Shown here: positions 12,529 to 59,374 of the stretch, piece after piece | How positions within the stretch are numbered: position 1 is the first letter of the stretch | How the letters are laid out: each line of letters begins with the position of its first letter | Source of the DNA: a virus | IMG/VR virus record: IMGVR_UViG_3300032214_001486 | Span: 40,975 to 104,974 of that record | Reading direction: 5' to 3' (one strand) | Length of the DNA: 64,000 nt | The notes under the pieces: model-generated | Databases searched by the model: none | Told to the model about the DNA's origin: nothing | What the model saw: the letters and a program-made list of their open reading frames with translations, nothing else | Made by a program: the position numbers and the translations under genes

Positions 12529-13260
12529 CTACTTGCCCCGCACGGACTCCACGAGAGCAAGGGCCAGGGCGTACTCCAATAGGTGCTCATAGGACCATGC
12601 AAGATCGGACAGCGTTGCTTTTTGAGGCACCCCGTTGACAGACCAGCCGGAATTGCCTGTCTTTTTCTTGAACTTTAGGGTTTTGAGGCTGTTCACGAGG
12701 CCGGCGACAAGATATGCGTTGATCTCACCCCATACTTCGGGTCCGTAGGACTGACCATAAGCCCGGATATTGCGGATTGTGCCCAAGGGGCCGGAGGAAA
12801 CAGGGTCGGTAGAATGAACGTGGTCGTTGCTGAACAGCCGGACCATCAGCAGGTAGGTAGAATAGGTGCCTGGGTGGGGGTTATTCCACCGTTTTGTCGT
12901 GGGGTTCAGCGTTTGCGCGACAAACCGATACCCCTTGTTCTTTTTGTACTCCAGCCAGTACCGCATGAGCGTCCGGTGTCGCCCATAGGGGTAGTCCTCC
13001 ACGACATACGCGGTGTTCTCGTCGGTATGCCCATAGAGGACTTCGCCCTTTGGGTCAAATTCAAACGGGGCCCGTTCCCACAATAGCTCTGCGGTACGGA
13101 TGGGGTTCGCCTCGATCCAGTCGAGCAGCCGGGCTTGCTCCGGGTAGGCGGCGAGCCAGTCTAATAGGTTCAAGTCGCTGCTGCCCCGCGCCGGGGTGAG
13201 CCGCCGCACAATCTTTTGGGCGGCCTTGTAGGCTAAGGGCTCGTACTTTTCGTCAGACAC
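12529..13260 (-). CDS. phage-type hypothetical protein with shared N-terminal leader
   Basis: GAGGT RBS and own promoter; leader RLLDWIEANPIRTAELL; core TAYVVEDYPYG...RYWLE. Confidence 0.75.
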   Translation of the reverse strand: MSDEKYEPLAYKAAQKIVRRLTPARGSSDLNLLDWLAAYPEQARLLDWIEANPIRTAELLWERAPFEFDPKGEVLYGHTDENTAYVVEDYPYGRHRTLMRYWLEYKKNKGYRFVAQTLNPTTKRWNNPHPGTYSTYLLMVRLFSNDHVHSTDPVSSGPLGTIRNIRAYGQSYGPEVWGEINAYLVAGLVNSLKTLKFKKKTGNSGWSVNGVPQKATLSDLAWSYEHLLEYALALALVESVRGK

Positions 13261-14274
13261 GGGATACCTCGGGGGTGTATGGGGGGAAAGGGGCCAGTCT
13301 ACCCTTTAGCGGCAGGCGCAAGCAAGCACGGGGCTCACGTTCCTGCGGCCCGCGCCGGCAGAATACCTTAACACTCAACGCTGAGCCCTTAACTGATTTA
13401 CTACCTGCCTAATCACCCCCCAAAACAGCAAGAGCTTAAATAGGTGCGCCCAAGAGTCATCGTACTCCCCAAAGTTTTCGAGGGGAAGCCCCTGCTTTTT
13501 TCTCCACATTTCTTGTTGAATTGCCCCAATTATGGGCTGGATATGGGCTGTCGGGGCAAAGTGTGCCCTCCAGACAGCAGTTTTGGGGTCATTGTCGAGG
13601 ATGCACACCCCGCAATCCTGTAGGGCTTTAAGTAGACTTTCGGGGTCATGGGCATCGTACTCGACCAGCCAAGGGTCGCGGATAACACGAGTAGAACCAA
13701 CACTGATTTCAACCCCCCTTAGTACAACAAAATCTGCGGAGCGGTGAAGTTCGGTGGGGGGTTTTGTCCTTGGGTCCATATTGTCCACAACGTCACTGAT
13801 CGACATCGTTTCGTGGTTGGGCCACTGAGACTGCAAAATCAAGAGAGACGGACTTTTGCGGGTTGCGGCTTTGGGTACAACCCAAATATCCTTTATGTTA
13901 CCTACGGATTGGCCTCCTTCTATTTCTTCCGTTTCTTTCTTTGCCTTTTTGTGCCATTTGGGCCAAGTACTCACAGGGATGGCCCGCGGGTCCGAGGGAA
14001 TGACAGGAGGAAACGCTCGAAGAAACTCGTTTACGATCAAAGTCGGCCAGCGGTTTCTGGTTTTTTCGTGCCCGTCCCCGTTCTCGGGGCTACCCTCACC
14101 ACCGGAGGCTATAAGGTCGGGCAGGACAGCCTGAAACACAGGCAGGGGCATCTTATCCACAAAGAGATCAAGAGCGGCCCAAATTTTAGGGGGGCTACGG
14201 TAGGACACGGGATACCTCGGGGGCGGGCAGGAGGAGAGGGGCCAGTCTACCCCTTGGCGGCGATAGAAAGCAAG
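13256..14274 (-). promoter_or_regulatory. duplicated 71-bp promoter+RBS+start block (13256-13326 and 14204-14274)
   Basis: Both copies read TTGCTT-N18-TAGACT-GGCCCC...CCCCCGAGGTATCCCGTGTC. Confidence 0.8.
13375..14208 (-). CDS. hypothetical protein
   Basis: GTG at 14208 defined by the duplicated block. Confidence 0.7.
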   Translation of the reverse strand: MSYRSPPKIWAALDLFVDKMPLPVFQAVLPDLIASGGEGSPENGDGHEKTRNRWPTLIVNEFLRAFPPVIPSDPRAIPVSTWPKWHKKAKKETEEIEGGQSVGNIKDIWVVPKAATRKSPSLLILQSQWPNHETMSISDVVDNMDPRTKPPTELHRSADFVVLRGVEISVGSTRVIRDPWLVEYDAHDPESLLKALQDCGVCILDNDPKTAVWRAHFAPTAHIQPIIGAIQQEMWRKKQGLPLENFGEYDDSWAHLFKLLLFWGVIRQVVNQLRAQR

Positions 14275-14276
14275 GG

Positions 14277-15392
14277 TTAGAGGGGTTCGCCGGGGCCGCG
14301 CCATACGCCGCCATAGACCGGGCCCTCGGAGCCGTCCCAGGTGCCGCCGTAGATGACAGCACCGCCGCTAATTTCGGCGTCGCCCTCAACGATGGTATCA
14401 TTGTAGAGCTTGCACGTCCCTACTTGTGCCCGGCCACCAACGTAAACCCGGTCGTGAAGCTGAGCATCATCATAAACCTGGGCTCCGTCGCACACTTGGC
14501 TATGGCCGTAAACGCAAGCACCGCCAATGACGACGGCATTATCGCCTACATAGCTATCGTCCGTCACCAGGGCTTCGTCCCCGACCTGGGCGCTGCCCGA
14601 TACCAGCGCCCGACCCGACACCGTAGCGGCCCCGGAAACCTCTGCGTCGCCCCTGATCTCAGGAGTACCCGCTAAGGTTGCGTTGTCCTTTACCACGGCA
14701 TCATCGAACACAAACGGACCTGCGGACGGGTCTAAGCCTTCAATATCGACCGTGCTCTCGATTACGCCCGCACCCTCAACGTAGCGCAGCCGGTTGAGTT
14801 TGGTATCGGTATTTTCCAGCTCGTTAAGGTACTGTAGGCATTTCTCCAAAAAATCGCCGTAGATGCTGTAGTCAACCTGTTTAGCCTTATACCCACGGCC
14901 AACTTTGTAATCTACCCATTTTTTGTGGGTGTAGGTCAAACGGGAAGCCTGATAGTCATACAATTCGTCTACGGTCTTGTCGATTGCCGCGGCTGCGTCT
15001 GCTCGGAAATCCTCGGCCCAACCCTCAGTGTACCCTTCTTCTCCTGCGGCCCAATCGAAGATATTGTCTACTTCGTTACTAATTTCGTGGTAGTCGTCGT
15101 GCTCAGACTTGAACCCCTGGATATGGGCGTTCACCTTGACCATGTATTGCTTGAACACGCCCAGGATGTAGCAGTAGGCGGCGATTGCATCCACCTTACC
15201 CTTCTGCCGCTCTTTGTCCCTCCGCTCAATCAAGCCCTTGGCGAGAAAGGCCCCGTAGTACAGCGGCTTGCTTTGGTACTTCTTGTCCTTTGGGCTGTTC
15301 GGCTTTAGCTTCTTTTGGATCTTATTTTCGCAAACGCCGTAGGCGCTGGCGCCCCGCTGAATGAGCACGCTTGGGTCTTGGGTGTAAGGCAT
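14277..15392 (-). CDS. protein with C-terminal left-handed beta-helix (hexapeptide repeats)
   Basis: Repeats such as VSGAAT, VSGRAL, VGDEAL; cap GGTWDGSEG. Confidence 0.8.
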   Translation of the reverse strand: MPYTQDPSVLIQRGASAYGVCENKIQKKLKPNSPKDKKYQSKPLYYGAFLAKGLIERRDKERQKGKVDAIAAYCYILGVFKQYMVKVNAHIQGFKSEHDDYHEISNEVDNIFDWAAGEEGYTEGWAEDFRADAAAAIDKTVDELYDYQASRLTYTHKKWVDYKVGRGYKAKQVDYSIYGDFLEKCLQYLNELENTDTKLNRLRYVEGAGVIESTVDIEGLDPSAGPFVFDDAVVKDNATLAGTPEIRGDAEVSGAATVSGRALVSGSAQVGDEALVTDDSYVGDNAVVIGGACVYGHSQVCDGAQVYDDAQLHDRVYVGGRAQVGTCKLYNDTIVEGDAEISGGAVIYGGTWDGSEGPVYGGVWRGPGEPL

Positions 15393-15421
15393 GGTGTGTG
15401 TCCTCTGGTCGAAAGCAGAAA

Positions 15422-16444: not shown

Positions 16445-16521
16445 GGCGTACCTCGCAGGGAAAAGCCCCGCCAGTATAGCACAGGCGGGGCCGGGTTGTC
16501 GAGCGCAGTTTTCGCCCGACC

Positions 16522-17106
16522 CTAATCGTCAACCTTTGCCTTCCTCCGCTTGCTTGTCACCGGGTAGTGCTTATTCATCCAGGCTTTCACGGCTCCGTAG
16601 CGTTCACCGTAGGGTATCTGCCCGTAGTCGTGCGCGACATACATATCCTTTAGGTATTTCGCGGCGTCCTGACTCCAGATGCGACGGGCTTCTTCCTGCT
16701 GTTCGATGGTAATGGCGCCCGTATCTGCTCGGTCTGCGAGTACCCGTTGAATGTCCGAGACAAACATTCGCTTTACGAAGATGCCCTGTAGGGCGCCGTA
16801 GAAGTCTGCCGCCAAGCTACCGGGGGAAGGGGCCGAGCCGCGCACAAGGAACCCGCCATCGCCCCTTTCAGGGTAAGAGCTTTGTGCCCACGCTGCGATG
16901 TTCTCCCGCGTCGGGGGCAGCCGTAGTCCCGGCTGGGCCTCAACCGCAGCGTAGATCAGCCGGGCGGTCTTGCTTTCGTTCTGGTCTACCCATTCGCGCA
17001 GACCAGGGCTCTCCCGCTCCCGCAGCGTGATCTCCCGGTCTACCAGCCGCCACAACGCCGCCGCTTTCAGCCGCAACGCAAATTCTGTGTCTCGGTCTGT
17101 GGTCAT
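16522..17106 (-). CDS. hypothetical protein with shared N-terminal leader
   Basis: GLREWVDQNESKTARLI; ATGA coupling. Confidence 0.7.
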   Translation of the reverse strand: MTTDRDTEFALRLKAAALWRLVDREITLRERESPGLREWVDQNESKTARLIYAAVEAQPGLRLPPTRENIAAWAQSSYPERGDGGFLVRGSAPSPGSLAADFYGALQGIFVKRMFVSDIQRVLADRADTGAITIEQQEEARRIWSQDAAKYLKDMYVAHDYGQIPYGERYGAVKAWMNKHYPVTSKRRKAKVDD

Positions 17107-19565
17107 GTCGTCCTCGGTCCTTGTAGCTGCTCGTCGGTGAAGGTGCCTTCTTCTTCGCCGTTAACGTACTCAACGTACAGGCCGGGCAAGTTTTTACTTA
17201 TGCGTGTCGATCCTACGCTGACCCGATAGAACCCCAACCCGTCGTCTGTCTTGTCACCTTCGGCCCCTCTGTTCTCGTCGGTGTTATCGTCGTCGTCAGA
17301 CCTGTACTTTTTGCGAAACCCAATATCTGTGTGCCACGTTACGGGTTGCTCTGACAAAAGCTGTGTCATTCTGTTCGCATAGCCATCGCTGCCCGGCAAG
17401 TAAGGCCAATATGCCCGCCGTAGGAAGTAGTCGCTTTGGTCCTCTACGGATTGTGTGGGGAGAACCCTTCCAAACGCCTTAGTGAAGTCCGCCGCATCAG
17501 CGACAGCCCAAGAGGGTGTGTAGCGGGTCGTGTCCCGCCGCATTGAGTCAAACCGGCGTTTAAGGTAATCTGCGATATTCTCTCCCCCCTCTTTCCGGTC
17601 ACGCGCACCCCGAGCTTTCTTATACACTTCGTCTTGGATGCCGTAATACTTATGGATAAATGTTGCGAAGGTGTAGTACATATTCACGACGAGCAGAGCC
17701 AAATACTTGGCCCATCGACTACGGACGCTTTTGACCTGTTCGACTACATCGGAAGGCAGCAGATTTTCGCACAGCAGCACATCGGGGTTGACGATCCAAC
17801 CGTCCTTAGAAACGCAGAATTTCGCAAAAACATCGGCCACGACTTGCAAATCGTTATCCAGGGCCCCAAGGCGACCCGCGGCTGTATCGACACCAGACGA
17901 AAATAAGCAAGCGTCGGCCTGTCTGTAATTCAGGGCCCCCCGGCTTTCTTTCACAAGCAGGTCAAGGCAATCATTGACCTTCCGCGCTGCGGCTTGATAC
18001 TCCGCGAGTAGCTGGGGGTTACAGAAAGAGAAGGGCTGGATATTCCCCCTAAAGTTCTTTGCGTACAGCCGAGCAAAGGGGTCGTTACGCCACGTTTGCT
18101 CGTCAAGATCGTAGGAGAATGGGCCCAGCAGCAATTCATTGAGGCGGTGGAAGGCATTGAAGAACGTGTGTGGTGTCTCCCGCAAAGGATCGCCGGGTTT
18201 GGCCTTGGAGCCTTGTAGCGGGGGGTGTACGAAGTCAATAAGCACCACAGACTTCCGCTTTTTGGCTTCCTCAGACGCCCTCTTGTAGAATTCCTCGCTC
18301 CGATAATTGTTAGGGGCGATCATAAAGGACAGGCGCAGCGAGGGTAGCCCCCGCTCCAAAGCGAGGCGATCAACGTGGTCTAAGCCCTTAGAGAATTTCT
18401 CTTTAGCGTCCTGCCGGAGCATGGGCCCAAAGTAGTAGTGAGCGGCGCCCTGCTTCCCCTTGAATTCATTTTGCCAGGAGAGCAGAGGGTTTGCACGGTA
18501 GCCGTTGGCCCGCGTTTTCGATTGCGTGTCGGGGGCGACCTTGCGGAAGCCACTATCCCCCTCATAAGGGATGAATTTCTTGTCAAAGAGGTTAGGTAGG
18601 TCCAGCCGGATACGGTAGCCCGACTTCGTGGCCTTTGTCGCTTCGATGACACCGCAAATCTGCGCTTCGGTAAATCCACCAAGTCTCTTAATGACAGCGC
18701 AGACGCGATCTCCGGCCGCTATCCCCTGACTCGACATACGCCCCGCGATCTTGTCTTTGTGTTCTTGCAGGTAAGCGTTGATCAGCAGGTCAATCTTGGT
18801 TTGGTTCTTTTCAAGGAATACCTTGTACTCAGGGCTGCTTAGGTACTGATTGCGTCCGCCATATTCCTCGTATTTCCCCTCCATGTAGGCTAAGTATTCT
18901 GTGTAGGACTGTAGGCTCGGCTGTTTTTCCGGTATGACACCGGGTACACCTGGGCGCAACCGTTCTTCTGTGAACCCAGCATTGAAGGCAGTATACTGAT
19001 CAATTGAGGTGCCGGCCGTGAATACCACGCAGGGACCGCTGGTGAGGCGGTCTATTGCGATATTCTGAGCAGGAACGTGAGACAGACCCGCCTTGCCGGA
19101 CAGGAGGCCGATTTCGCGCGCAGCCCGTTTCGTTTCATCCAGGCTGAGCTTGCCTTGGGGTGTGACCGTAGCAGCGAGGGTGTTCACCAGCATCTTTAGG
19201 TCAGCAGCTAAGCCTTTGTACTGGCCCCGAGCCGACCCCACAGACCACTCCCTGTTTCCCAGGATCAAGGTGCGGCCCGCCTTGCCATCCCGCATGACGC
19301 TGGGCGGGTTTGGGATGAATTCGTAAAGGCCGTCTGCCTGCGGGTCTGGACTTAGGTCCACACCATAGGCCAGCAGGACCGGGCGCAGCAGCAGAGGCAG
19401 GAACGGGTCAAGCCCTACAGCATCCCGCGCGTCCAAGGCGTCTGCGATTAGATCAAAGGTACGGGGTATATTTTGATCTACCCACGCTTTCAGCGCAGGT
19501 TTACCCTTGATCTTGGTCGATAACCGCCTGTAGACGCGGCCTTGTGTTTCGTTGACGGCTTTCAT
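17103..19565 (-). CDS. large multidomain hypothetical protein with shared leader and internal RANGYRANP linker
   Basis: ALKAWVDQNIPRTFDLI; 820 aa; GAGG RBS. Confidence 0.75.
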   Translation of the reverse strand: MKAVNETQGRVYRRLSTKIKGKPALKAWVDQNIPRTFDLIADALDARDAVGLDPFLPLLLRPVLLAYGVDLSPDPQADGLYEFIPNPPSVMRDGKAGRTLILGNREWSVGSARGQYKGLAADLKMLVNTLAATVTPQGKLSLDETKRAAREIGLLSGKAGLSHVPAQNIAIDRLTSGPCVVFTAGTSIDQYTAFNAGFTEERLRPGVPGVIPEKQPSLQSYTEYLAYMEGKYEEYGGRNQYLSSPEYKVFLEKNQTKIDLLINAYLQEHKDKIAGRMSSQGIAAGDRVCAVIKRLGGFTEAQICGVIEATKATKSGYRIRLDLPNLFDKKFIPYEGDSGFRKVAPDTQSKTRANGYRANPLLSWQNEFKGKQGAAHYYFGPMLRQDAKEKFSKGLDHVDRLALERGLPSLRLSFMIAPNNYRSEEFYKRASEEAKKRKSVVLIDFVHPPLQGSKAKPGDPLRETPHTFFNAFHRLNELLLGPFSYDLDEQTWRNDPFARLYAKNFRGNIQPFSFCNPQLLAEYQAAARKVNDCLDLLVKESRGALNYRQADACLFSSGVDTAAGRLGALDNDLQVVADVFAKFCVSKDGWIVNPDVLLCENLLPSDVVEQVKSVRSRWAKYLALLVVNMYYTFATFIHKYYGIQDEVYKKARGARDRKEGGENIADYLKRRFDSMRRDTTRYTPSWAVADAADFTKAFGRVLPTQSVEDQSDYFLRRAYWPYLPGSDGYANRMTQLLSEQPVTWHTDIGFRKKYRSDDDDNTDENRGAEGDKTDDGLGFYRVSVGSTRISKNLPGLYVEYVNGEEEGTFTDEQLQGPRTT

Positions 19566-19581
19566 GGTCGGTGTCCTCGAC

Positions 19582-20637
19582 TTAGGCGGGGCGCTTGGCC
19601 TTGTGGGCTTTCAGGGCGGCTTGTGCTGCTTGGTACTGCTGCGTAGCCGATTGTAATTGTTGCTCTAAAGCCCTATACTCTGTCATGCTTTTTTTGTGGC
19701 TCCTGTCCGGCCCCCCAACTCTATCCCAAGCCTTGAGTCTCCCGTGTAGTGCTGACCGGGTGCGGTCAAGCTCGCGGGCCTGCTCTTGGAGTCGCGTAAA
19801 CTCTGCCTCCCAAGCCGTGTTTGCCTCGGGTGCGGGGGACTCTACTCGTTTGGTCGGCAGCATTTCGCGTAAGCCTGGGAGTAAGACGGCGTTGAGCCAA
19901 TTTTGGGCTTCCGCCCGCGTCGGGTTGTCTTGTAGCTTCCCGCACAAAAAGGAATAGTTCATATTCCAATTAGAAAGGGTTGGGCCTCCGTACTTCCCTG
20001 GGGGGAGGGCTAAGTATGCGGTTTGCATCGCCACCACCTCGGGGTGCTTAGGTAGGGCCCCCCAGGCAGCATTTAGCCGGTCACGGTTGTACCGATCAAC
20101 GCCGGGGGGCAGCGGAGGCGGCCAATCGCTTGCGTCTGTCTGAGGCAAAAGCAAGGGGGCCGGGGCAGACCGGGTGTGCGCCCACCGGGGGCTAAGGGCA
20201 TTAGACACCAGCGCCCCGGCAAAACGGTCCCGTACCGCTTTGAGAATGACTTGATCTTTGAGTTGATTAGAGGGAGAGTAGATTAGGCTGGGGGGATAGT
20301 TGTCAAAGATTTTGATGATAACGGTGTCTGTGTATTCTGTCGGCTGGATAAACCGATCAGCAGGCACCGTTACTCCCGGTACTTTGCGATAAACGGTCAC
20401 GGGGCTACCGCTGTAAGTGTTGGGATGAAAGGGGGCTTGTGCGGGCAGATACCAGAGCTTCGTCTGCACGGCGGGAAGTGGGGCTGTCTCCAACCCAATT
20501 CCGCGGCGTCTTAGCTCTGTTTCAACCCAGCCGAGTAGAATGTCCTTGGGGGGAACAGTCTCCCAGCCTAATTTGTGGTCTATGTGTTTAGCGGCATTGG
20601 CAAGAACGTGGGCTAAGTACAATTTGCGCGTCGTCAT
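19582..20637 (-). CDS. hypothetical protein with C-terminal coiled coil
   Basis: Same 18-bp RBS/start element as the downstream gene (19562-19579, 20634-20651). Confidence 0.7.
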   Translation of the reverse strand: MTTRKLYLAHVLANAAKHIDHKLGWETVPPKDILLGWVETELRRRGIGLETAPLPAVQTKLWYLPAQAPFHPNTYSGSPVTVYRKVPGVTVPADRFIQPTEYTDTVIIKIFDNYPPSLIYSPSNQLKDQVILKAVRDRFAGALVSNALSPRWAHTRSAPAPLLLPQTDASDWPPPLPPGVDRYNRDRLNAAWGALPKHPEVVAMQTAYLALPPGKYGGPTLSNWNMNYSFLCGKLQDNPTRAEAQNWLNAVLLPGLREMLPTKRVESPAPEANTAWEAEFTRLQEQARELDRTRSALHGRLKAWDRVGGPDRSHKKSMTEYRALEQQLQSATQQYQAAQAALKAHKAKRPA

Positions 20638-20664
20638 GGTCGGTGTCCTCGGCGGGTTTGGGCC

Positions 20665-21255
20665 TTAGCGGCGTTGTCCGTTTTTGCGTTCCAGCGTCGG
20701 GTAGGGGGAGCGGGGGCCGAGCCAGCGCCCCGACGTGACCTCCCCTTCGGAGCCATCCCAGGTGCCCCCAAGGATCACGGCTGTACCCCCGATCTTTGCT
20801 TTGCCTGTGATGCGGGCGCGCCCGCCGACGTGGGCCTCTCCTGACACAATCGCGTGTCCGCCGACCTGAGCGACCCCTTTAACGGTTGCCCGCCCGCCAA
20901 CGTGCGCGTTATCAGCGACGATAGCTTGCCCGCCGACGTTGGCTTGATCGGTGACCCGAGCGTTGCCGTAGATTTGGGCCCGCTCCAACGCGCGAGCGTT
21001 GCCGTCAAGGGTTGCAGCCCCGTAGATTAGGGCTTCTCCCTGCGTGGTTGCGTTGCCCTTCACGGTGCCCCGTTCCCACACATGGCGGAAGCGGGAGATC
21101 CCTAATGCCCGGCGGATCTCCCGTTGAACCCAATAAAACCTACGGTATGCGTACTGCCACAACCGGGGGCGGCCGGCTAACTTCGCCCCCAGGGCTTCCC
21201 AGGCGCGCACGTCCCGGTCATCCTCGGGGGCGAACGGGGTTTTGATCGAAGGCAT
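20665..21255 (-). CDS. left-handed beta-helix protein, paralogous C-terminus to 14277..15392
   Basis: Hexapeptide repeats; same cap GGTWDGSEGxVxxGxWxGP. Confidence 0.8.
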   Translation of the reverse strand: MPSIKTPFAPEDDRDVRAWEALGAKLAGRPRLWQYAYRRFYWVQREIRRALGISRFRHVWERGTVKGNATTQGEALIYGAATLDGNARALERAQIYGNARVTDQANVGGQAIVADNAHVGGRATVKGVAQVGGHAIVSGEAHVGGRARITGKAKIGGTAVILGGTWDGSEGEVTSGRWLGPRSPYPTLERKNGQRR

Positions 21256-21303
21256 CCATCACCCTAAACAGCGTGAGCGAGCCTGCGAGGGCCAGCGCGG
21301 TAT

Positions 21304-21687
21304 TTAGCGAAGCCAAGCCCAGCCGGCTTCTGCGTTGCGCCAGCATAGCACAGGGCCGTTGGTGCTGATCCAAATTTCTTCTGTTGTCCCCCCGTTCTTG
21401 TCGGCCCAGGTATCGCAGCGGGCTTTGAGGCCGTCCAAGTATTCCGGGGTCAAGGCCGCTTTTAGCTCAGAGAACCGACCCTGACAGTCTCGGCAATAGA
21501 GGCGGCCGTCCTTTCGCCAAGTCAAAATCAAGCGGGCCATCTGCGGGGCGTGCGTTTCGACAATCTCCCGCGCCTTTGCCTCCACCGTTGGGCCGCTCAA
21601 TCCATGCTTACGGCTCATTTTCTGCGCGAGCAGTACAGCAGCGTTGGGCGCCACACCGAAGGAGACAAAGGGCTTGGGATCATACAT
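21304..21687 (-). CDS. hypothetical protein with leader-like segment and CxxC
   Basis: AREIVETHAPQMARLI; YCRDC. Confidence 0.6.
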   Translation of the reverse strand: MYDPKPFVSFGVAPNAAVLLAQKMSRKHGLSGPTVEAKAREIVETHAPQMARLILTWRKDGRLYCRDCQGRFSELKAALTPEYLDGLKARCDTWADKNGGTTEEIWISTNGPVLCWRNAEAGWAWLR

Positions 21688-21694
21688 TAGGCAC

Positions 21695-22165: not shown

Positions 22166-22233
22166 AACGTGCGCTCCGGGTATTGTCAAGCGACAATAGG
22201 TTAGTGTAAGGGGGCGAGCGGGGCAGGGCGGGA

Positions 22234-24048: not shown

Positions 24049-24110
24049 GACAAACCCCCGACCAGAGTGTAACCCGGTCGGGGGCAAGGGGCATGGGGCG
24101 TGGGGGCGGG

Positions 24111-24437
24111 CTACCGACGCCGTGTGCTCAGGCTCGGGCCTTGCTGCCCGTCCAGGGTGAATATGTACTCGATCCCGCTCCACACAAGGTAGAACGCAGG
24201 AACCCCCCGGTAAACGCCGCGGTAGTAGCCTACATGCCAATCCGTTGTGATACGGAAATCTTTTCTGTACCCCAACTGATACTGTATCCAGGCCCATTCC
24301 TCGGGGCCGAGCGCCCGTGCGAAGGTCTGCCGGCTGACTTCCTCCCCCGTCTCTTTGAGGGCGGAAATATCCTCCTCGGTAGATCCAATACAATTGGTCA
24401 CAAAGCGGTATCGATCAGTGATGGGTGTCCGGGCCAC
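24111..24437 (-). CDS. small phage-type hypothetical protein
   Basis: FVTNCIGS...DWHVGYYRG...SGIEYIF. Confidence 0.7.
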   Translation of the reverse strand: MARTPITDRYRFVTNCIGSTEEDISALKETGEEVSRQTFARALGPEEWAWIQYQLGYRKDFRITTDWHVGYYRGVYRGVPAFYLVWSGIEYIFTLDGQQGPSLSTRRR

Positions 24438-24438
24438 G

Positions 24439-26337: not shown

Positions 26338-28325
26338 TGGAAATCCTTGCGATTTAGGGTGGGAGGGATACCGAAGCGGGCGGGCCATTGGATCAAGGGT
26401 TCTTGATCCTGTAGGTGGTTTCGGTACATAAGGACGCGGTACATATCTTCTAACGCTGTGGGCTGATGCTCGCCCCGATAACTTCCCACAAGGAAGGACA
26501 CAACGCCATTCCTTTCGTCCCCCCGATCCCCCGTATAAGCGAAAAGCGGGTATTGCTGCATGAGTCTTTGATACCCCGCGATGAAATCGGAGAGGGGCAG
26601 ACCTAATTTCTCTGCGGGGGTATTGTAGGTTCTCACTCGGCGCCCCGTCCATTCCCCAATATCGTTTGTCCCAGCTTTGTGGATGACGTAATCCCCCCTC
26701 TCCTTTTCGCCCTCTAAGTAGTAAGGCTTCTCTCCGATAAACAGGATGGCCTCTAAGGGGCCTTTTTGGGCGCGGTTGAACGCCTTGCGTTGGGTCCATG
26801 AGGTTGCGTGTTGGGTGACGTACTCGGTCAGCTTCCGCAAACCCTCTTGGCGCAGGTCATCCAGAGCGTCCTTGTTTGCTTCGATCTTTGTCCGAATTTC
26901 AGTGTTTCGGGCTGTTTTTTGGGCTTGGATCTCACGCTCACGCTCACCCCGTTTACGCTGTTCCTCCTTTTGCCGCTTCCGCTCTATCCCCGCGGGGCTT
27001 GCATCGAATTCTCGTTGTGCTTCGTCCTCTGCTTGCTTCCTTGCGGCGTCTGCGTAGGCTTGGTACTCGTCCTTTTGTTTGTCGGACAGCCCGTAGGTAT
27101 TGAGCAAAAGGGCGGCGCTGTCCCAGGGTGTGTAGTAGAACGGGGCCCGGTCCCCGCTAAGAACGTAGCCTCGTTCCTTTGCTTCCTCCTGCTCTCTCTC
27201 TCGGTTTTGTAACTTCTGCTGTATGAATTTTGCGATCATACCGGGGTTACTCTCGGGAGAATACACGTCAGCCACGGGGTACAGACTCTTGATAATGCTT
27301 CTGGTCTGCTTGCCCGCGGTGCCGCCCGCAAAGGCGAGCACGGGGTTCTGTTCCGCAAGGTAAGCCAAGGCCCCCGCCACGGCATCCCAATCCGGGGTGT
27401 CTCCAAGGTGTATGTCGCCCTCTAAGCCAAACAGCACGCGCAGTCCGTGATCGGTCAAGTGCAGCTTTTTGGCCCACCGCTGCACATCTTCGTTCTCGGG
27501 GCCCTCCTCTTTCCAGGCTGCTCGCTCTTTGGTCCCCTCTTTTTTCTGTACGGCGAGGTTTTGCCAATCTTCTGGTGTCATGCCTTCGGGGTAGCGCACC
27601 CGCCACGGGCCGAGGACCGTTTCTAAGTCGATGATTGTTCCCTGCGTGTCCCGCACCGGCTCATACCCGTAATTAGCGATTTCCGCATAGTCTCTGTTGG
27701 CGTATACGGTGTGGCCCGCTTTGCTGGTCAATACTGCGATGACGGGGCCTATCCCGGCCTTATCCGCGGTGACCACGATGCGGGGGTAGTAAGCGTAAGG
27801 GTATATACTTATTCCGTACCCCAACTCGACGGCCTGGAGCAAGAAATTGGCGTAAGGCAAAAGCAGATAGAACGATACTTGACCCTCGGCCTTTGTGTGG
27901 GGCCTCACCCTGTCATACAAACCCCGGTGTGTAGCCTCAATCCACATATTCGCGGTGCCGTCACTCATAGCGGGCTTCTCTACCCGTTTCAGCCCGAAGG
28001 CAGACGGAAAGTACCGTACATCAAAGATCAAATCACGGTCTTTGTCAATAAACACGTTTTCTGCTACCGGCTTGACCTTGGGCTTAGGGTAGGGGGCGTC
28101 AGCATAGGTCTGATCTCCCTTGCGTTGTGCCATAGCGCGCGTGATCATCAAAGCGAGGTGGCTATCGTGCCCCATCACGCCTTGCCCCGACTTGTACCGC
28201 TTACGCAGAAACGCACCCAAGGGGGTGTTCTCCGGGCAAAGATCCAGTAGAGCTTGGAGGATGCGGTAAGGTGTAATCGGGGCGATATGTAGGGGCTTAG
28301 GCCACGGGTAGTCTACGCGCAGCAT
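26334..28325 (-). CDS. hypothetical protein, paralogue of 24439..26337
   Basis: GALAYLAEQNP block followed by coiled coil. Confidence 0.7.
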   Translation of the reverse strand: MLRVDYPWPKPLHIAPITPYRILQALLDLCPENTPLGAFLRKRYKSGQGVMGHDSHLALMITRAMAQRKGDQTYADAPYPKPKVKPVAENVFIDKDRDLIFDVRYFPSAFGLKRVEKPAMSDGTANMWIEATHRGLYDRVRPHTKAEGQVSFYLLLPYANFLLQAVELGYGISIYPYAYYPRIVVTADKAGIGPVIAVLTSKAGHTVYANRDYAEIANYGYEPVRDTQGTIIDLETVLGPWRVRYPEGMTPEDWQNLAVQKKEGTKERAAWKEEGPENEDVQRWAKKLHLTDHGLRVLFGLEGDIHLGDTPDWDAVAGALAYLAEQNPVLAFAGGTAGKQTRSIIKSLYPVADVYSPESNPGMIAKFIQQKLQNREREQEEAKERGYVLSGDRAPFYYTPWDSAALLLNTYGLSDKQKDEYQAYADAARKQAEDEAQREFDASPAGIERKRQKEEQRKRGEREREIQAQKTARNTEIRTKIEANKDALDDLRQEGLRKLTEYVTQHATSWTQRKAFNRAQKGPLEAILFIGEKPYYLEGEKERGDYVIHKAGTNDIGEWTGRRVRTYNTPAEKLGLPLSDFIAGYQRLMQQYPLFAYTGDRGDERNGVVSFLVGSYRGEHQPTALEDMYRVLMYRNHLQDQEPLIQWPARFGIPPTLNRKDFQ

Positions 28326-29243
28326 TTAGGGCTCCGTAGGCGGGAATTCGACGCGCCAAGCCTGGGTTGTGCCGACAGCGGCCTTCGCTTTGTGTGAGTT
28401 GGTGCCGGACTCTATCGTAACACCGACCAGATCCTTGTGGGCGCCGGCTATGACCCGTACCGTTGTGCCGATGGCGATGTTTTTGTCTTTCCCGTCCTCC
28501 CGCTTCAATTCATCCTTGCGTATCCAGCGGGTGTAGCCGAGCAAGGCTTCCAACCGCCGTTCTGCGTGCTCTGCGAAAGGCGGCTTCACCCGCATCGGTT
28601 TGATCGGACGGTAGTTAGCGACGAGGCGCAGAAATTCGGTGTCTCTGGACCCCAGGATTTCAGCGTTGACGCTCCGTACCCAGGCCCGATCTTCGTCCGA
28701 CATGCGGGGCATAGAGAGCATCGCCCGCGCCCCACGATCAAACCAGTCGGCTATCTTCTGCTCTGTCTCGTCTTGGCTCTGCTCGTCCTTCCGTACATAC
28801 AGGGTTTTCGCTACCCCTGCTTCGGTGACCCGTTTGAGGGCGCCGTCGCTGGTCAGCGCGATCAGCAGCCACTTCGCTTGGGTTTCGTCCATCCATTCCG
28901 GGTTCTTGCCCGACCGGATGATCGCCCGGACTTTGTGCTTGTCTCGGTCTGAGAACAGGGCGGGCAGCGTTGCCGGGGAGAATTCAAAGCTACGCCCGGC
29001 CTGCAAGGCAGGGCCGGGCGAGTAAAGGAACAGATCGTACACGTCGGCGTACTTGTCATCGAGCTTGTCTAAAGCGTGGGCCAGCCCTTCCTTTGCGTCA
29101 AGCCGATCTTCAACAAACTTATACAACCGGGTTCTATGCGTCTGCATCCAAGCAAGCAACCGCTGCGAGCGGTCGTCTTGCCGCGAGCTAAGCAGCTTTT
29201 GGACTTTTTCCAGCACACTATCGGGAGTCAAAGCAGCGGGCAT
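28326..29243 (-). CDS. hypothetical protein with leader-like N-terminus and C-terminal KOW/SH3-like motif
   Basis: RLLAWMQTHRTRLYKFV; IGTTVRVIAGAHKDLVG. Confidence 0.65.
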   Translation of the reverse strand: MPAALTPDSVLEKVQKLLSSRQDDRSQRLLAWMQTHRTRLYKFVEDRLDAKEGLAHALDKLDDKYADVYDLFLYSPGPALQAGRSFEFSPATLPALFSDRDKHKVRAIIRSGKNPEWMDETQAKWLLIALTSDGALKRVTEAGVAKTLYVRKDEQSQDETEQKIADWFDRGARAMLSMPRMSDEDRAWVRSVNAEILGSRDTEFLRLVANYRPIKPMRVKPPFAEHAERRLEALLGYTRWIRKDELKREDGKDKNIAIGTTVRVIAGAHKDLVGVTIESGTNSHKAKAAVGTTQAWRVEFPPTEP

Positions 29244-29272
29244 GGTGGCGGACCTCGATGGGCTTGGGGGGC

Positions 29273-29301
29273 AACGTAGCCCGACCCTTGCCGTTCGTCA
29301 A
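29273..29301 (-). promoter_or_regulatory. sigma70-like promoter
   Basis: TTGACG-N17-TACGTT. Confidence 0.6.
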
Positions 29302-29399
29302 GGGTAGTCGAACGCAATAATACCCGCCCATGATACCAGAAGGCACCGCGGGCGGGTAGGGGGATCGTCGGGCGCCGCGCTTAGCGGTTCATGTATTCG

Positions 29400-29846
29400 T
29401 TACCCGTTCCGGTACTTCTCCAGGGCCAAGCGAAGGCAGGGCATAACGCCCGGCGCGAGGGGATAGTGTGGCAAATCTTCCACCGCCACCCAGGCGAAAG
29501 CGTCGTGTTCGCCGTCCGCGAGAACAGTAGCTTGGCCGTTGTCGTAAGTCAAGTAGATGGCCCACGACCGTACTGTGCCGGCGTACCACAAGGCCCGAGG
29601 CCCCGAGGCCCCGATTTCCTCAGCCATTTCGCGCAGCGCCGCGGCCGGCGGCGCCTCCCCCCGCTTCACATGCCCACCGGGCAGGCCCCACAGCCCCGGC
29701 GCCCAGGGGGCGGTCTTTCCCCGCAGCAGAAGCAGTACCCGCAAGGGCGCGCCGCCCTGGACGATGACGACCAGGGCGGCGGTTGCGGCTGCGGGAGCCT
29801 GGGCGGCGGCTGCGGCAGCCTGGGCGGCGGCAGCCCTGGGGTTCAT
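29400..29846 (-). CDS. Nudix hydrolase
   Basis: WGLPGGHVKRGEAPPAAALREMAEEIG Nudix box; ATGA-coupled to the large SNF2 gene. Confidence 0.9.
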   Translation of the reverse strand: MNPRAAAAQAAAAAAQAPAAATAALVVIVQGGAPLRVLLLLRGKTAPWAPGLWGLPGGHVKRGEAPPAAALREMAEEIGASGPRALWYAGTVRSWAIYLTYDNGQATVLADGEHDAFAWVAVEDLPHYPLAPGVMPCLRLALEKYRNG

Positions 29847-32800
29847 CGGTGCCGCTTCGGGACTAAGGCGCTGACCCGCCGGGGGTTCTCAGTCACCTTC
29901 CGGTCAACGATCTGGCGCAGCTTAAACTGCCCCGGCTGGACCTTAAACTTGGGAATGTCAGCCAAGGTCAAGGGGGGCACTACAAAAGACCCATCGTTAT
30001 CATCCGTCCGCACCAATCCGTTGTTTTTGAGCACACGCGGGATTGTAACTACCTTAAAGTACCCCGCTTCAATTCCAGCCTTAGCTCTTTCAGCGGGTAA
30101 CCCAGCGGCCTCTAAAGCAGCGTAAGTGGCGGAACCCCCCACACTTTGCAGATACTTGTAGATTTCTCTTTGTTTGGGTCGGGACGTACCGGGATCACGG
30201 ATCGCCTGCACCCCCTTGTCCGTGAACGCATCGTCCTCGGCGGCGGCGTCCCGCACCATCTGTTCGTCAATGATGGTATCTTCTTCTGTTAGACCACTGA
30301 GCCCCTCGATATTGGCCCGCAGAGTCTCCATAAGGTCGGTAGCGTATTCCTCCTCTACTACCTTATCCCCCTTCTCCTGTAATTCTTCAAACTTATCCTC
30401 ACCTACAACGTCACCGATGATCTGCCGCTTCCGCTCGATAAGGGCGTTTAGCTGCTCGTCAATCGTATCCTTGACGACCAAGAATTCAATCGTCACGTCA
30501 CGGGTCTGCGTGTACCGATAAGTACGGTCCTCAGCCTGTTCTTCCCAGGCCGGGACATACCAACGGTCCACAAACAGGGTGTAGTTAGCGCGGGTGAGGG
30601 TGATACCCTCGCGCGCCGCCCGTGTCCCGATGAACACCTTGACCTTGGAGTTATCCCGGTCCTTCTGGAACGCTTCTACTCGACGACGGCGCTCCAAGGG
30701 GGGCACCTTCCCGTCAATATAGACATAGGGGATGCTGCGGGCGTCCAGGGCTTGCCGAATGAGTCCCATATTCTCGTCAAACTCAACAAACACCACAACG
30801 GGGTCGTTAGGGTGCTCTTTCAGCCGCGTAACGATAGTCTCGATGGCGAACGGCGTCTTGACCTTCGCTACTGCCTGCCGGGCAATCAGGTAGACGACAA
30901 AGGCGGTGCCGGCGATCTTCTTGGGGTTGTATTCAAGCTCGTTTGCCATTTCGGTCGCTTGGTAGACCGTAATTTTGCCCTTTCCATCATGGATGAATTT
31001 GAGAGCGGCGTCGATACGCTTCTCCCGAATTCGCTGGATTACTACCTCCAGCACCTTAGCCATTTCTGTGTCGTAAATCTTCCGCTGCGCCGGAGTCAGC
31101 AGGACTTCCCGGTACACACGGGTCTTTTCTCCCAGGCCCAGGGGCACTTGATTTTTCAGGCGGCGGACCATGTAGCACCGGAGCATGACGCCAAGGCGCT
31201 TCCGCAGGTTGTCCACCGTATCAAGCGTGGGGATATTGCCCTTGAAGGACGTGTTTTTCTCCGAGGGTACAAAGTTGTTCGTGTACTTGTAGTAGCCCTC
31301 CCCGTCTAAGGCTTCACCAAAGGCTACCGGGTCCACCATCGAAAGCTGGGGCCACAATTCCTCCAGCTTAGCGTTATCCAGGGCGGTGCCCGACATAACG
31401 ATTGAATACTCGGCCTGATAGGACAGCTCTCGGGCGCCAATGCTGCGAACGCTATCAAATTTCTTGCCGTAGTGAGACTCGTCTACGATCAAGGTCTTGA
31501 TACGGTCGTAGTAACGGGGGCCGTACTTGCTGGTGCTCGACCAACCCATGATGATGAAGTCAGCGTTGCGCTCAGCATCGGTTAGCTCTCCATCCCCTAA
31601 CTTACCCAAAATGGGCCCTGTACCTACGAAAACCTTAGCGCCGGGATACCAACGATCAATCTCCGCAGCCCAATTGTAGAGCACGCTGGACGGGCACACG
31701 ACTACAACGGGGAGTGTTTGCGGCGCCCTCATGCGGACAGCCGTGATCGCCTGCACGGTCTTACCTAAGCCCATCGCGTCGCCGATCAACGCCCGGCCCC
31801 CGCGCAGCCATACATACGCAGCCCCGATCTTCTGATACTCCATAAGGCCCATCATTTTAGGCCCGCCGGGGTAGTCTTTGTTAAGGTACTGCATCTTGTC
31901 CCAATCATACATATTCTCAATCTGAGCACGCTCCGGTTGAGGTATATCGGAGAATTTGGCCGCAGCGGCCACAGGGAACGCCTTGGGGCAATTGAGCATA
32001 TAGGCGGACAACAGAGCAATCCGCATCGTGTAGGACAACACGAATTCATTAGACAAGTCAAGGGCGCGGGCAAGGCGCGGCACATAGCCGGCCCGGATCT
32101 CACCCAGAACAACCGGGACCGGAAACGGCGCATACTTCAGGTTTTCTTTCAAGTCAATTCGCTTGCCCCAGCCGGGCATGAGTTCATATGTATCTTCCCC
32201 ATACCCGGTCTGAGCCAAGTTAGCCGAGTAGTAGTTGAGAATGACCTCCTTTTGGTACTGCCCTGTCTCCTTGTCTACTATCTTGTTCCCCCTAATGTCT
32301 GTCCGGTACTTGGCGTACAGGAACCAACCGCAAATTTCACTCACGTTGTCTGTGCCAATAATGACGATCTTACTCTTTGTCGCGTCTGTAGCAGCCGCCA
32401 GAGCACGCAAACCCCAGGCGTCCCCCAATTGCGGTATGAAATCGGTGCCCACCATAGAGGTAGGTACGACAAACACACCCCGACAGGCAGAGAACGAAGG
32501 TTCTGTCAATTCTTTGGCTACAGCAGCAATTGTGTCAATCGACCGACTCCAAGAAGGCAGGGGAGTTTCACCCTTAAACCCGGAGGATTGAATTTTGCTT
32601 TGGCTCTGCTCTCGCGCGTCTCCCCCTTTAATCCGTACCATTTCTGCGGCCTTGTCCTCCTTGGGCAGAAGGCGGGACCACTGGTACACAAACGAAAGAT
32701 CGCGCACAATCTGTTTGCTGTCCCCACTCACCAATTCTTCCCAGGTGTCGTGGAGCTTGGGTGTCATTGTGCTCAAATCAACAGTTTCTCCTCCACCCAA

Positions 32801-34273
32801 CGCAAGGCGCCGGGGCGCCCTGGCTGTGTATACTTCCTTCTCGATCCCCTGGGGAGTGACCATCTGCCCAGGGCTTAGCTGTACCTGGGCATCGAGCCCG
32901 GCCTTTTCCCAAGCCTCGGCAAGAGCAGGCAGGTAAGCGAAAACGGCCGGGATCTCTTTCAAGTCCCCCTCAGAGTCCGCGCCTTCTCGCCATTCTTGCA
33001 GGAATACGGCAAGCTGCGTGGGCGTTGTCGGGACAAGCACCTTATACTTGTCTACCGTCAGGCGCTTACCATATCGGTTAAAATAGCCAGAGAACGAAAA
33101 CAGCGCCGATACCGACTCACCGGGTAGACCGCCCCGCTTTTGGAACCGATCTCGGGTTGTGAGCCCGACCATAACCCCCGCGGGGGTTACCTCCCAAGAA
33201 AAGGCCGGGTGCCTTTGGTCAGGCGCGTAGTATTCGCCCTGGTGCAAGGCACCAGTAACCTTCCCCGTCGCGGGCCGGGGTAGCCGGGCAGATTGCTTAC
33301 TCCCCTTTTTGATCTGCCGGGGCGCAGGAGCCTTAGCTGCTTGCTCAGTCCACCCTTCCCAAGAAGTCTGCAAGCGATCAGCGGCGTTGGGGTATTGATC
33401 CCGCAGGTAGTCAATAAGTAGCGGTACTTCCTTGATCGAAATGTCGAGATACCAATTCTTGTATCCGCCCTTCTCCTCGGCTCGGGGCACGGCGTTGCCC
33501 CCAGCCTCGTTGATGGCGTTTTGAGCGGTAAACAGGTCTAAGGTCTTTGTAGATAGCGACAAGTACCCTGTTTTGGGGTCATAGCGCCAATTGAGGTTCC
33601 CGGTCTTGGTCAGAGGGATAGAGCCTCGGGCCAACGGTGTCCGCGAATAGATGTGGAAGTCCTGCTCGTCGGGCTTCTTGGCCCCAGGTTTCGTCAGCCG
33701 TGCGGGCTTTAAGTAATTCTCTAAGGTGCGGACAGCCCCCATCACCGCTTGGCGGGGTAGCTGAGTCTTGCTGTGTGTAATCAGCAGCCGGGCTGCGTAC
33801 AGATAATCTTGATCGTCTGCATAGCCGCCGGCCACGCGGGAGAGGAAAGCCCGCAGCGCCCCGTTTGTGGCTAAAGAGAACCCAGCGTCATCGTTATACG
33901 GCTTGGGTAGCGGGGGCGGGAGAACTGCAAGGTCAGCTACCATCCCGACAACCGCATCCTTTGCGGCTTGCACGTTAGGGTAAGTGTAGACCGCCTCGTT
34001 GGACACCTGAGCAATCGAGCCCGTAGTCTTGCGAATTACCCGCTTTTCGCGTAATTCATTCTTCTTCTCTTTCAAGGCATTAAACAGCGCCTTTTGAATT
34101 CGCTCTTGGTGTGCAAAGTAGTACGCCCTTAGTGGGCCGGTCAACCTCGACTCTAACCGCTCGATTAGATCCAGAACGGTTACAGAGAACAAGGCCGGGG
34201 GATTATGGCCCGGAATGGAGGGAACGGGGGGCTCCCCCACGGGGCTTTCCATTTCGCTGTCGTTGCGGCGCAT
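29843..34273 (-). CDS. large multidomain SNF2-family helicase with about 800-aa N-terminal extension
   Basis: LMEYQ, DAMGLGKT, DESH, MSGT, EGITL, QAEDRTYR; ATG at 34273 with GGAG RBS (MRRND...). Confidence 0.9.
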   Translation of the reverse strand: MRRNDSEMESPVGEPPVPSIPGHNPPALFSVTVLDLIERLESRLTGPLRAYYFAHQERIQKALFNALKEKKNELREKRVIRKTTGSIAQVSNEAVYTYPNVQAAKDAVVGMVADLAVLPPPLPKPYNDDAGFSLATNGALRAFLSRVAGGYADDQDYLYAARLLITHSKTQLPRQAVMGAVRTLENYLKPARLTKPGAKKPDEQDFHIYSRTPLARGSIPLTKTGNLNWRYDPKTGYLSLSTKTLDLFTAQNAINEAGGNAVPRAEEKGGYKNWYLDISIKEVPLLIDYLRDQYPNAADRLQTSWEGWTEQAAKAPAPRQIKKGSKQSARLPRPATGKVTGALHQGEYYAPDQRHPAFSWEVTPAGVMVGLTTRDRFQKRGGLPGESVSALFSFSGYFNRYGKRLTVDKYKVLVPTTPTQLAVFLQEWREGADSEGDLKEIPAVFAYLPALAEAWEKAGLDAQVQLSPGQMVTPQGIEKEVYTARAPRRLALGGGETVDLSTMTPKLHDTWEELVSGDSKQIVRDLSFVYQWSRLLPKEDKAAEMVRIKGGDAREQSQSKIQSSGFKGETPLPSWSRSIDTIAAVAKELTEPSFSACRGVFVVPTSMVGTDFIPQLGDAWGLRALAAATDATKSKIVIIGTDNVSEICGWFLYAKYRTDIRGNKIVDKETGQYQKEVILNYYSANLAQTGYGEDTYELMPGWGKRIDLKENLKYAPFPVPVVLGEIRAGYVPRLARALDLSNEFVLSYTMRIALLSAYMLNCPKAFPVAAAAKFSDIPQPERAQIENMYDWDKMQYLNKDYPGGPKMMGLMEYQKIGAAYVWLRGGRALIGDAMGLGKTVQAITAVRMRAPQTLPVVVVCPSSVLYNWAAEIDRWYPGAKVFVGTGPILGKLGDGELTDAERNADFIIMGWSSTSKYGPRYYDRIKTLIVDESHYGKKFDSVRSIGARELSYQAEYSIVMSGTALDNAKLEELWPQLSMVDPVAFGEALDGEGYYKYTNNFVPSEKNTSFKGNIPTLDTVDNLRKRLGVMLRCYMVRRLKNQVPLGLGEKTRVYREVLLTPAQRKIYDTEMAKVLEVVIQRIREKRIDAALKFIHDGKGKITVYQATEMANELEYNPKKIAGTAFVVYLIARQAVAKVKTPFAIETIVTRLKEHPNDPVVVFVEFDENMGLIRQALDARSIPYVYIDGKVPPLERRRRVEAFQKDRDNSKVKVFIGTRAAREGITLTRANYTLFVDRWYVPAWEEQAEDRTYRYTQTRDVTIEFLVVKDTIDEQLNALIERKRQIIGDVVGEDKFEELQEKGDKVVEEEYATDLMETLRANIEGLSGLTEEDTIIDEQMVRDAAAEDDAFTDKGVQAIRDPGTSRPKQREIYKYLQSVGGSATYAALEAAGLPAERAKAGIEAGYFKVVTIPRVLKNNGLVRTDDNDGSFVVPPLTLADIPKFKVQPGQFKLRQIVDRKVTENPRRVSALVPKRHR

Positions 34274-34339
34274 AGGCACTCCAGGGTAAGACAAGGGCAA
34301 GGCAGGGCCTTTCGCGGTTACCCTACCATAGACGCATAT

Positions 34340-34371
34340 AGCCCGCAACCCCCTTTCGAGGGCTGCGGGCT
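34340..34371 (-). terminator. hairpin downstream of the GHKL gene
   Basis: AGCCCGCA...TGCGGGCT stem. Confidence 0.45.
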
Positions 34372-34394
34372 GCGGGCTTAGGGGCAGACTTGGC

Positions 34395-37064: not shown

Positions 37065-37068
37065 AGGA

Positions 37069-37542
37069 TTAGGCCCCCATCTGAGTAGCAAGGTCAAACA
37101 AACGAGAAACAGCAGACGGCGCGCTGGCGACCTCCGCCGGGACAGTCACTTGGCCCCGCTTGCGTTCACCGGGGGTCATATTGCGTATGTCTGTGAAGAT
37201 ACTGAGTACCTGGGCAGCCTTTGTGGGGTCTTGCTCCCACATACCCAAGGTCACTTCCGCCAGCTTATCCAGCCGTTTGAGCAGCGCAGCATCGACGGGC
37301 AGCGTGCCTCGACTCACAGCCAGCCGGAGAGCCTGTACGTTGCTCAGCATGGACGGAAGCGTGGTCGGGGGCCGACCGCGCAGGCTGACAATATCCTTGG
37401 GGGCTGCGGTGCGGGCTTCCCAGGTAGTCTTGACGTACTTGGCCCAATACGCCTTGTTTTGCTGCAAATGAGCAGACAAGTAAGGCGCGCGTTGGGCGAC
37501 CGTAGCCAATACAGCATTGACTTGATCTTTGGTGAGGATCAT
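37069..37542 (-). CDS. hypothetical protein
   Basis: AGGAG RBS; promoter TTGACC-N18-TATGAT at 37562-37591. Confidence 0.7.
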   Translation of the reverse strand: MILTKDQVNAVLATVAQRAPYLSAHLQQNKAYWAKYVKTTWEARTAAPKDIVSLRGRPPTTLPSMLSNVQALRLAVSRGTLPVDAALLKRLDKLAEVTLGMWEQDPTKAAQVLSIFTDIRNMTPGERKRGQVTVPAEVASAPSAVSRLFDLATQMGA

Positions 37543-37612
37543 GGAGCACTCCTGAGCCCGCATCATAGCCCAGCGGTGGGTTTTAGGTCAAGGGGTACGG
37601 CTAAAACAGAAT

Positions 37613-59314: not shown

Positions 59315-59374
59315 CCCAGGCTCGCTCTTGGAGTACCCTGCCCACACTTCCCCCCACCACCAATGAGGCAGACC

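Follow-up and report, generated by a model that had tools for sequence, protein, structure and literature searches.

In the window analysed here, the last 64 kb of the 105-kb genome of an uncultured freshwater phage (a linear, single-contig IMG/VR virus record of 104,974 bp, with a CheckV completeness of ~85%), motif and family-profile comparisons show that three, and probably four, otherwise unrelated proteins of one operon carry a lineage-specific N-terminal domain of 45-60 residues, which we call the leader. The leader is homologous between its carriers and under purifying selection. An earlier, sequence-only reading of this DNA had proposed that up to eight unrelated proteins share such a leader, and that it docks variable effectors into the virion or onto a common partner. 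Genes are named by their start coordinate in the window (e.g. 12529 for 12529..13260), and all leader carriers are on the (-) strand. The carriers are 12529..13260 (243 aa), 16522..17106 (194 aa), 17103..19565 (820 aa) and probably 28326..29243 (305 aa), with the following features:

13063..13260 (-), leader of 12529 (aa 1-66): basic helix A, then a duplicated W-helix, LLDWLAAYP followed by LLDWIEANPIRTAELL at 13081..13131, with WERAP leading into the body; found by regular expression and position-specific scoring matrix (PSSM)
12529..13062 (-), body of 12529: beta core and C-terminal helices, LYGHT..TAYVVEDYPYG..RYWLE..RFVxQTxNP..WNxP..STY
16927..17106 (-), leader of 16522 (aa 1-60): core motif GLREWVDQNESKTARLI at 16954..17004; found by regular expression, hidden Markov model (HMM), hhalign and PSSM
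19422..19565 (-), leader of 17103 (aa 1-48): core motif ALKAWVDQNIPRTFDLI at 19446..19496; found by regular expression, HMM, hhalign and PSSM
29088..29243 (-), probable leader of 28326 (aa 1-52): motif RLLAWMQTHRTRLYKFV at 29112..29162; found by HMM, hhalign and PSSM

Several independent comparisons single out the first three proteins. In all-vs-all BLASTP, the only match between carriers joins the N-termini of 16522 and 17103 (E 0.002-0.003). A regular expression built from these two proteins with conservative residue classes, W[IVLM][DE].N..[RK]T..L[ILV], matches 12529 (aa 48), 16522 (aa 39) and 17103 (aa 28) and nothing else among the called proteins or in all six frames, compared with 0 matches in 300 shuffled proteomes. 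Scored with an ungapped PSSM, the three reach 49.6, 44.3 and 42.8, whereas the best of the shuffled proteomes scores 26.8. The motif is thus significant against shuffled controls for all three, and in this genome it is confined to N-termini. Family profiles were built from the orthologue sets P0001-3 (17103), P0006-9 (16522) and P0012-19 (12529). Compared by hhalign, 16522 aligns with 17103 at P 8e-7, 12529 with 16522 at P 5e-4 (52 columns, the upstream helix among them), and 12529 with 17103 at P 1e-3; the cross-family HMMs of 16522 and 17103 give E 2e-6 and 1.6e-3. The helix preceding the motif (KIVRRL, LWRLVDREI or RVYRRL), which had been pointed out from the sequence, does align across the families. 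The downstream domains are unrelated, also as proposed: the full-length profiles of 16522 and 17103 align only residues 29-63 with residues 18-52.

The leader has a consistent anatomy. Its core motif starts at residues 24-44 of the protein, and its elements follow one another in a fixed order: a basic amphipathic helix (consensus KAA..hh.RRL[ST]), a variable linker, a Trp helix of the form L-x-x-W-[IV]-[DE]-x that ends in N/H-x-(P), and a third helix that begins [RK]-T-x-x-L-[LI]. Two copies of the Trp helix stand in tandem in 12529 and its close orthologues, compared with a single copy in P0017-19 (~50% identity), and this tandem arrangement is what would be expected of a binding unit. An AlphaFold2 (AF2) model of 12529, with a mean predicted local distance difference test score (pLDDT) of 92 and a predicted TM-score (pTM) of 0.86, places helices at residues 9-21, 32-38, 40-51 and 53-63, with a pLDDT of 92-96 for residues 30-70. 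The AF2 model of 16522 is all-helical with helices that coincide with the leader elements, at a pLDDT of 53, a low confidence at which secondary structure alone was used. Co-folding the leaders of 17103 and 16522 gave a score of 0.02, which bears neither way on binding.

We consider it quite probable, on profile evidence, that 28326 is a fourth carrier. Its HMM match (E 0.0024-0.0066) falls at residues 14-52, the correct position; its hhalign match (P 9.6e-4) is the best of any non-member among 139 proteins; and its PSSM score of 22.7 is the highest of any non-member, near the 5% point of the shuffle maxima. The motif is nearest to the single-copy form of the 12529 family, LLGWLDAHMVRFAELL, found in diverged relatives (LLGWLDAH.VRF.ELL versus LLAWMQTHRTRLYKFV). 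All four carrier genes have a GAGG ribosome-binding site 8-11 nt upstream, and the stop codon of 17103 overlaps the start of 16522 (ATGA), an arrangement that suggests coupled synthesis of these two products. A C-rich header, CCCCCCA-N(4-10)-GAGG, occurs four times compared with 0.53 expected, at 13267..13286, 29253..29271 and 19985..20005 (-) and at 59350..59368 (+). The headers at 13267 and 29253 immediately precede the starts of 12529 and 28326, whose leaders are more alike than those of any other two carriers; this hints that the 5' untranslated region may have been copied along with the leader in this pair.

All eight strings named in the sequence-only reading are present, 24-72 residues from the predicted starts, but they are related to one another in only three, probably four, of the proteins. 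Its own ranking, in which the first three matches were convincing and the rest tentative, agrees well with the regular expression, PSSM and hhalign results; its upper figure of eight carriers does not, as four of the candidates score at chance by hhalign and PSSM. These four are 21304..21687 (-) (KAREIVETHAPQMARLI; HMM E 1.9, hhalign P 0.12 at rank 18 of 139, PSSM 14.0, under the shuffle median), the left-handed beta-helix (LbH) protein 20665..21255 (-) (hhalign rank 90 of 139), the large SNF2 helicase 29843..34348 (-), which matches phrog_62 (rank 52 of 139, P 0.35), and 37069..37566 (-) (YLSAHLQQNKAYWAKYV; rank 68 of 139, P 0.45). In each case the PSSM score is under the median best score of the shuffled proteomes. 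The SNF2 helicase and the beta-helix protein thus drop out as leader carriers; a second SNF2 helicase, 22234, ranks 82 of 139, at chance level, and the phage matches of 29843 and 22234 are generic SNF2 helicases. In other words, a basic N-terminal helix followed by L-x-x-W-[IVLM]-[DEQ]-x-[NH]-x-x-[RK]-[TV]-x-x-[LF]-[LIV], kept in orthologues, is found in 12529, 16522 and 17103, is borderline in 28326, and is lacking from 21304, 20665, 29843 and 37069.

No further copies of the leader were found in any frame of the 105-kb genome by regular expression or HMM. Possible extra copies at the C-terminus of 16522 (VKAWMNKHYPVT), in 19582 (LLGWVETELRRR) and in 34395 (ANIPRMWELL) were rejected with PSSM scores at chance. 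As an observation in its own right, the first of these (16522..16590 (-), residues 172-184 of 194) resembles the core of the leader on the neighbouring gene, LKAWVDQNIPRT, and its W, K, H, Y and P are kept by all orthologues, with a PSSM score in the chance range.

Within the orthologue sets, the leader is maintained about as well as the protein that carries it. Leader and body identities are 75 versus 85%, 80 versus 72% and 60 versus 68% in the three sets; the second pair belongs to 16522 (P0006-P0009), where the leader is the most conserved part of the protein. The relatives compared are 50-86% identical. The leader of 12529 is conserved in P0012-P0019, and is still recognisable at ~50% body identity (P0017-19); in 17103, residues W28, V29, D30, N32, R35, T36, L39 and I40 are invariant in P0001-P0003. 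Nucleotide identity in the motif region is no greater than protein identity requires, and the four 5' regions do not align as DNA, which argues for an old conservation at the protein level as opposed to a recent repeat. Searches with the leader profile gave only noise in Pfam at E up to 10 and no significant match in the PDB (best E 0.06), and none of the four carrier proteins has a match in PHROGs. On this distribution, the leader appears to be particular to this virus lineage.

The body of 12529 has a much wider distribution. Its family signature reads LYGHT..TAYVVDDYPYG, RYW.E, RFVSQT.NPK and WNKPK.STY, and homologues of the body without a leader, which the sequence-only reading had suggested looking for, number more than 90: P0020-26, 13 bacterial loci and 80 viral (IMG/VR) loci. 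The bacterial homologues are from Actinomycetota, Bradyrhizobium, Chloroflexota and an Elusimicrobia metagenome-assembled genome (MAG). The leader HMM finds nothing in 1.25 Mb around the body loci, nor in five whole large viral records. In most members of the family the protein starts with the core; in a few the core is the C-terminal domain of a giant protein. The body belongs to no Pfam family, and Foldseek against the PDB, Foldseek against BFVD and VIA-wide gave no convincing match to its fold (best Z 6.2, generic helical). With its confident model (pLDDT 92) and no such match, we regard the body as a candidate new fold representing a widespread, uncharacterised family in phages and bacteria. 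The leader is homologous between carriers and under selection, and most homologues of the 12529 body lack it; it is therefore a portable module, one that duplication and the shuffling of domains have spread within the operon.

In three records from huge phages (L018, L019 and L051), the core of this family is preceded at the same junction (..KPLYGHT) by a different element, a 28-aa tag of the form LRSxxIRLAHxKPELRxxLLPLL:

L018:9159-9242; L019:8782-8865 and 9704-9787; L051:9905-9988 and 11455-11538; whole records G001-G003: huge-phage tag

The tag occurs in 12 copies in a 248-kb record and in eight copies in a 222-kb record, both partial genomes. Its carriers are open frames of 84-565 aa, where most copies either directly follow the first Met or lie at the very C-terminal end. 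It is absent from the present genome. Pfam gave no functional clue for ten of the tag carriers, and a literature search for the IRLAH motif returned nothing relevant. A 53-aa N-terminal extension seen in L020 and L029 is single-copy in its records. By sequence, then, the 12529 body family is found bare, with the leader described here, or with the private, multi-copy tag of another virus.

We hypothesize that the leader serves as a common adaptor that would dock different C-terminal domains onto one shared partner, which may be a virion assembly intermediate or a shared protein complex. Such an autonomous adaptor is the explanation that we tentatively prefer, at slightly less than even chance: the leader moves between unrelated bodies, and other phages place a tag of their own at the same position. 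The coupled pair 17103/16522 and the duplicated Trp helix fit with this reading. Loading into the virion, the more specific role first proposed, is one possible version of such docking, and it is without direct support because structural and protease genes are unrecognised, the alignments show no cleavage motif, the helicases are untagged, and a leaderless homologue lies in a recombination-type region. Several findings weigh against an adaptor. Three or four members are few for an address system, and no shared partner was identified for the leader. An exhaustive hmmsearch of 1.84 billion representatives with the leader profile found it on no further body; it recovered just the 16522 and 17103 families and a spurious repeat translation (P0010), and its reach is short, as the 12529 family was not recovered by that profile. 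Capsid, portal, terminase and protease genes are unrecognised in the record (Pfam and PHROGs, among the proteins scanned). The leaderless Elusimicrobia MAG homologue of the 12529 body adjoins SbcCD and RecT, in a prophage region of recombination type as opposed to a structural region. The huge-phage tag is unrelated in sequence to the leader, and so provides an analogy only. Finally, AF2 models the 12529 leader as rigidly as the body, and VIA alignments to single helical bundles (e.g. Rsd and vinculin-like) span model residues 4-243, that is, the leader together with the C-terminal helices.

The last two observations raise the main rival, that the leader is a cis-acting subdomain (a cap, an autoinhibitory lid or the completion of a helical bundle) inherited through local duplications, with no common partner or address. 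The rigidity of the 12529 leader and the bundle alignments do suggest that it may pack in cis; the all-helical prediction for 16522 and an operon rich in paralogous pieces (the LbH, SNF2 and 24439/26334 pairs) are consistent with this as well. However, packing in cis needs a co-adapted surface, which would be hard to move among four unrelated bodies, the 12529 body has over 90 homologues that manage without the leader, and other phages put a different multi-copy terminal tag at that exact junction. We therefore judge this explanation unlikely, while still taking it seriously. A resemblance of amphipathic helices by chance, with no common origin, is barely credible. Plain leave-one-out HMMs link 12529 to 16522 and 17103 weakly (E 0.25-1.2), and four of the eight members first proposed are indeed chance matches, but the shuffled controls and hhalign P values of the core members, together with their agreement in position, operon and orthologue conservation, refute a chance origin for these three; for 28326 it is possible.

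Two further explanations assign the leader a definite destination. Under the first, it would be a capsid-targeting signal, like those of T4 and P1 DarB, that loads up to eight effectors, including the SNF2 helicases, into the head for co-injection and is possibly removed by a head protease. N-terminal signals of this kind are established in T4 and P1 DarB (PMC9024508), the operon does encode large helicases matching phrog_62, and the same body bears a multi-copy terminal tag in huge phages. However, four of the eight candidates pass none of the tests, and both claims that involve helicases fall with them; the motif is 24-48 residues from the N-terminus, within a folded domain of 45-60 residues; the alignments contain no conserved cleavage motif after the leader; and protease, capsid and portal genes are unrecognised in a record that is ~85% complete. 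We consider this version improbable. A broader form, in which the W-x-x-x-N leader and the IRLAH/PELR tag would be interchangeable, lineage-specific addresses that load proteins, including the widespread and structurally novel DYPYG-domain protein, into the particle to be delivered with the DNA, is by analogy conceivable and slightly more doubtful still; if true, the set of proteins that a phage injects could be read from its sequence by way of its private tag. The second explanation, a nucleic-acid-binding, helix-turn-helix-like domain that brings enzymes to phage or host DNA, seems very improbable. The leader has three helices, the first of them basic, and on our reading the W-helix, the turn and the [RK]-T-helix resemble the first two helices of a winged helix; neighbouring genes encode DNA enzymes (SNF2). 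Yet Pfam and the PDB sequences offer no match even at E 10, a count of charges from the sequences makes two of the three leaders roughly neutral overall, and neither a recognition helix nor a wing can be aligned.

The carriers lie in a long minus-strand operon that runs from ~40.9 kb down to 11.8 kb of the window, and whose products are nearly all without a Pfam or PHROG match. The exceptions are the SNF2 helicases 22234 and 29843, the beta-helix proteins 14277 and 20665, and 34395, with a weak HATPase_c match. In phmmer searches of the PDB, 17103 and 26334 had no match and 34395 matched only, and weakly, an Hsp90-like ATPase; protein-atlas look-ups of 12529 and 17103 were uninformative. Genes for replication are found in the left 42 kb of the genome (a family A DNA polymerase, methyltransferases, a Sak4-like protein, an exonuclease and a helicase), and the first 12 kb of the window contain an SbcC-like gene, a tyrosine integrase, an endolysin-like gene and a phrog_1645 'virion structural protein'. 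Among the scanned proteins of 41-64 kb, the sole Pfam or PHROG matches are a transglutaminase-like protein and an M15 peptidase, and Pfam found neither a terminase nor an HK97-type capsid in six frames of the record.

All-vs-all BLAST identifies three paralogous pairs in the operon: LbH proteins 14277/20665, the two SNF2 helicases, and 24439/26334 (E 1e-7). Proteins 14277..15392 and 20665..21255 (-) have a common C-terminal left-handed beta-helix (YdcK/LbH-like; phrog_5070/7964; BLAST E 1e-21) joined to different N-terminal parts, so the shuffling of domains has a second instance in this operon. Gene content varies too. Contigs of three independent runs join across a 948-949-bp gap at 13283..14236, so these relatives are without 13375..14304, a 309-aa gene whose insertion between 12529 and 14277 varies from strain to strain. 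A related Joint Genome Institute contig (L001:881-2467) has an extra, leaderless 528-aa gene between its homologues of 19582 and 17103, with no counterpart in the window. For 22234..24393 and 24439..26799 (-), the longest open reading frames (ORFs) probably begin too far upstream: the first ~110 aa of the 22234 SNF2 ORF are of non-protein-like composition, and the 786-aa ORF at 24439..26799 overlaps the upstream 663-aa gene by 465 nt, with a gap of ~350 nt nearby.

Near-identical and 80-95% similar sequences are present in many freshwater metagenome runs from ~15 studies, and diverged relatives were found on contigs of 57.8 kb (P0006/P0014), 38.5 kb (P0007/P0012) and 16 kb (P0017). A metagenome scan yielded one related contig of 5.5 kb, L001. 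Scans of viral contigs with the 820-, 900- and 1501-aa proteins and P0017 found no match, nor did phage GenBank searches by megablast or by tblastn with the 820-aa protein.

Taken alone, a leader with three or four members is a modest finding. Its wider significance is that terminal tags common to unrelated phage proteins offer a way to predict which of them travel or assemble together. Experimentally tested signals are few (T4 and P1 DarB), and the leader would add a folded, helical version of 45-60 residues with a clear sequence signature. A body that occurs bare, with the leader or with another tag is a natural experiment, which makes the address idea testable on one well-modelled protein.

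The leader can be compared with four known systems. Like the signals of T4 and P1 DarB, it is an N-terminal element separable from the body, and the T4 signal is likewise common to several unrelated proteins, which it directs to one place. These signals, however, are short (~10 to <30 residues) and extreme N-terminal, as in P1 DarB, where the N-terminal 30 residues suffice for capsid targeting (PMC9024508); the 45-60-residue helical domain described here differs in this respect. In T4 the head protease removes the signal, whereas the alignments show no common motif behind the leader and no protease was recognised by Pfam or PHROGs among the proteins scanned. The P1 DarB signal also sits on a large helicase/methylase, whereas SNF2 helicases 29843 and 22234 are without the leader.

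Phage tailspikes and tail fibres (e.g. those with P22/Sf6-type head-binding domains) combine a conserved N-terminal anchor with exchangeable C-terminal domains, and the leader resembles them in joining one putative N-terminal docking domain to unrelated C-terminal modules within one lineage. Unlike these anchors, it is missing from the beta-helix proteins 14277 and 20665, and no carrier body resembles a receptor-binding protein in the searches run. The cargo peptides of encapsulins and bacterial microcompartments are amphipathic helical tags of 10-40 residues that dock unrelated proteins to one shell protein; they are short peptides in cellular compartments, whereas the phage leader is a longer domain. 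The huge-phage tag is a parallel in that it joins members of the 12529 body family at an identical junction and is common to many otherwise different proteins of one virus. It is nevertheless unrelated in sequence, shorter, mostly strictly terminal (N or C) and present in 8-12 or more copies per partial genome.

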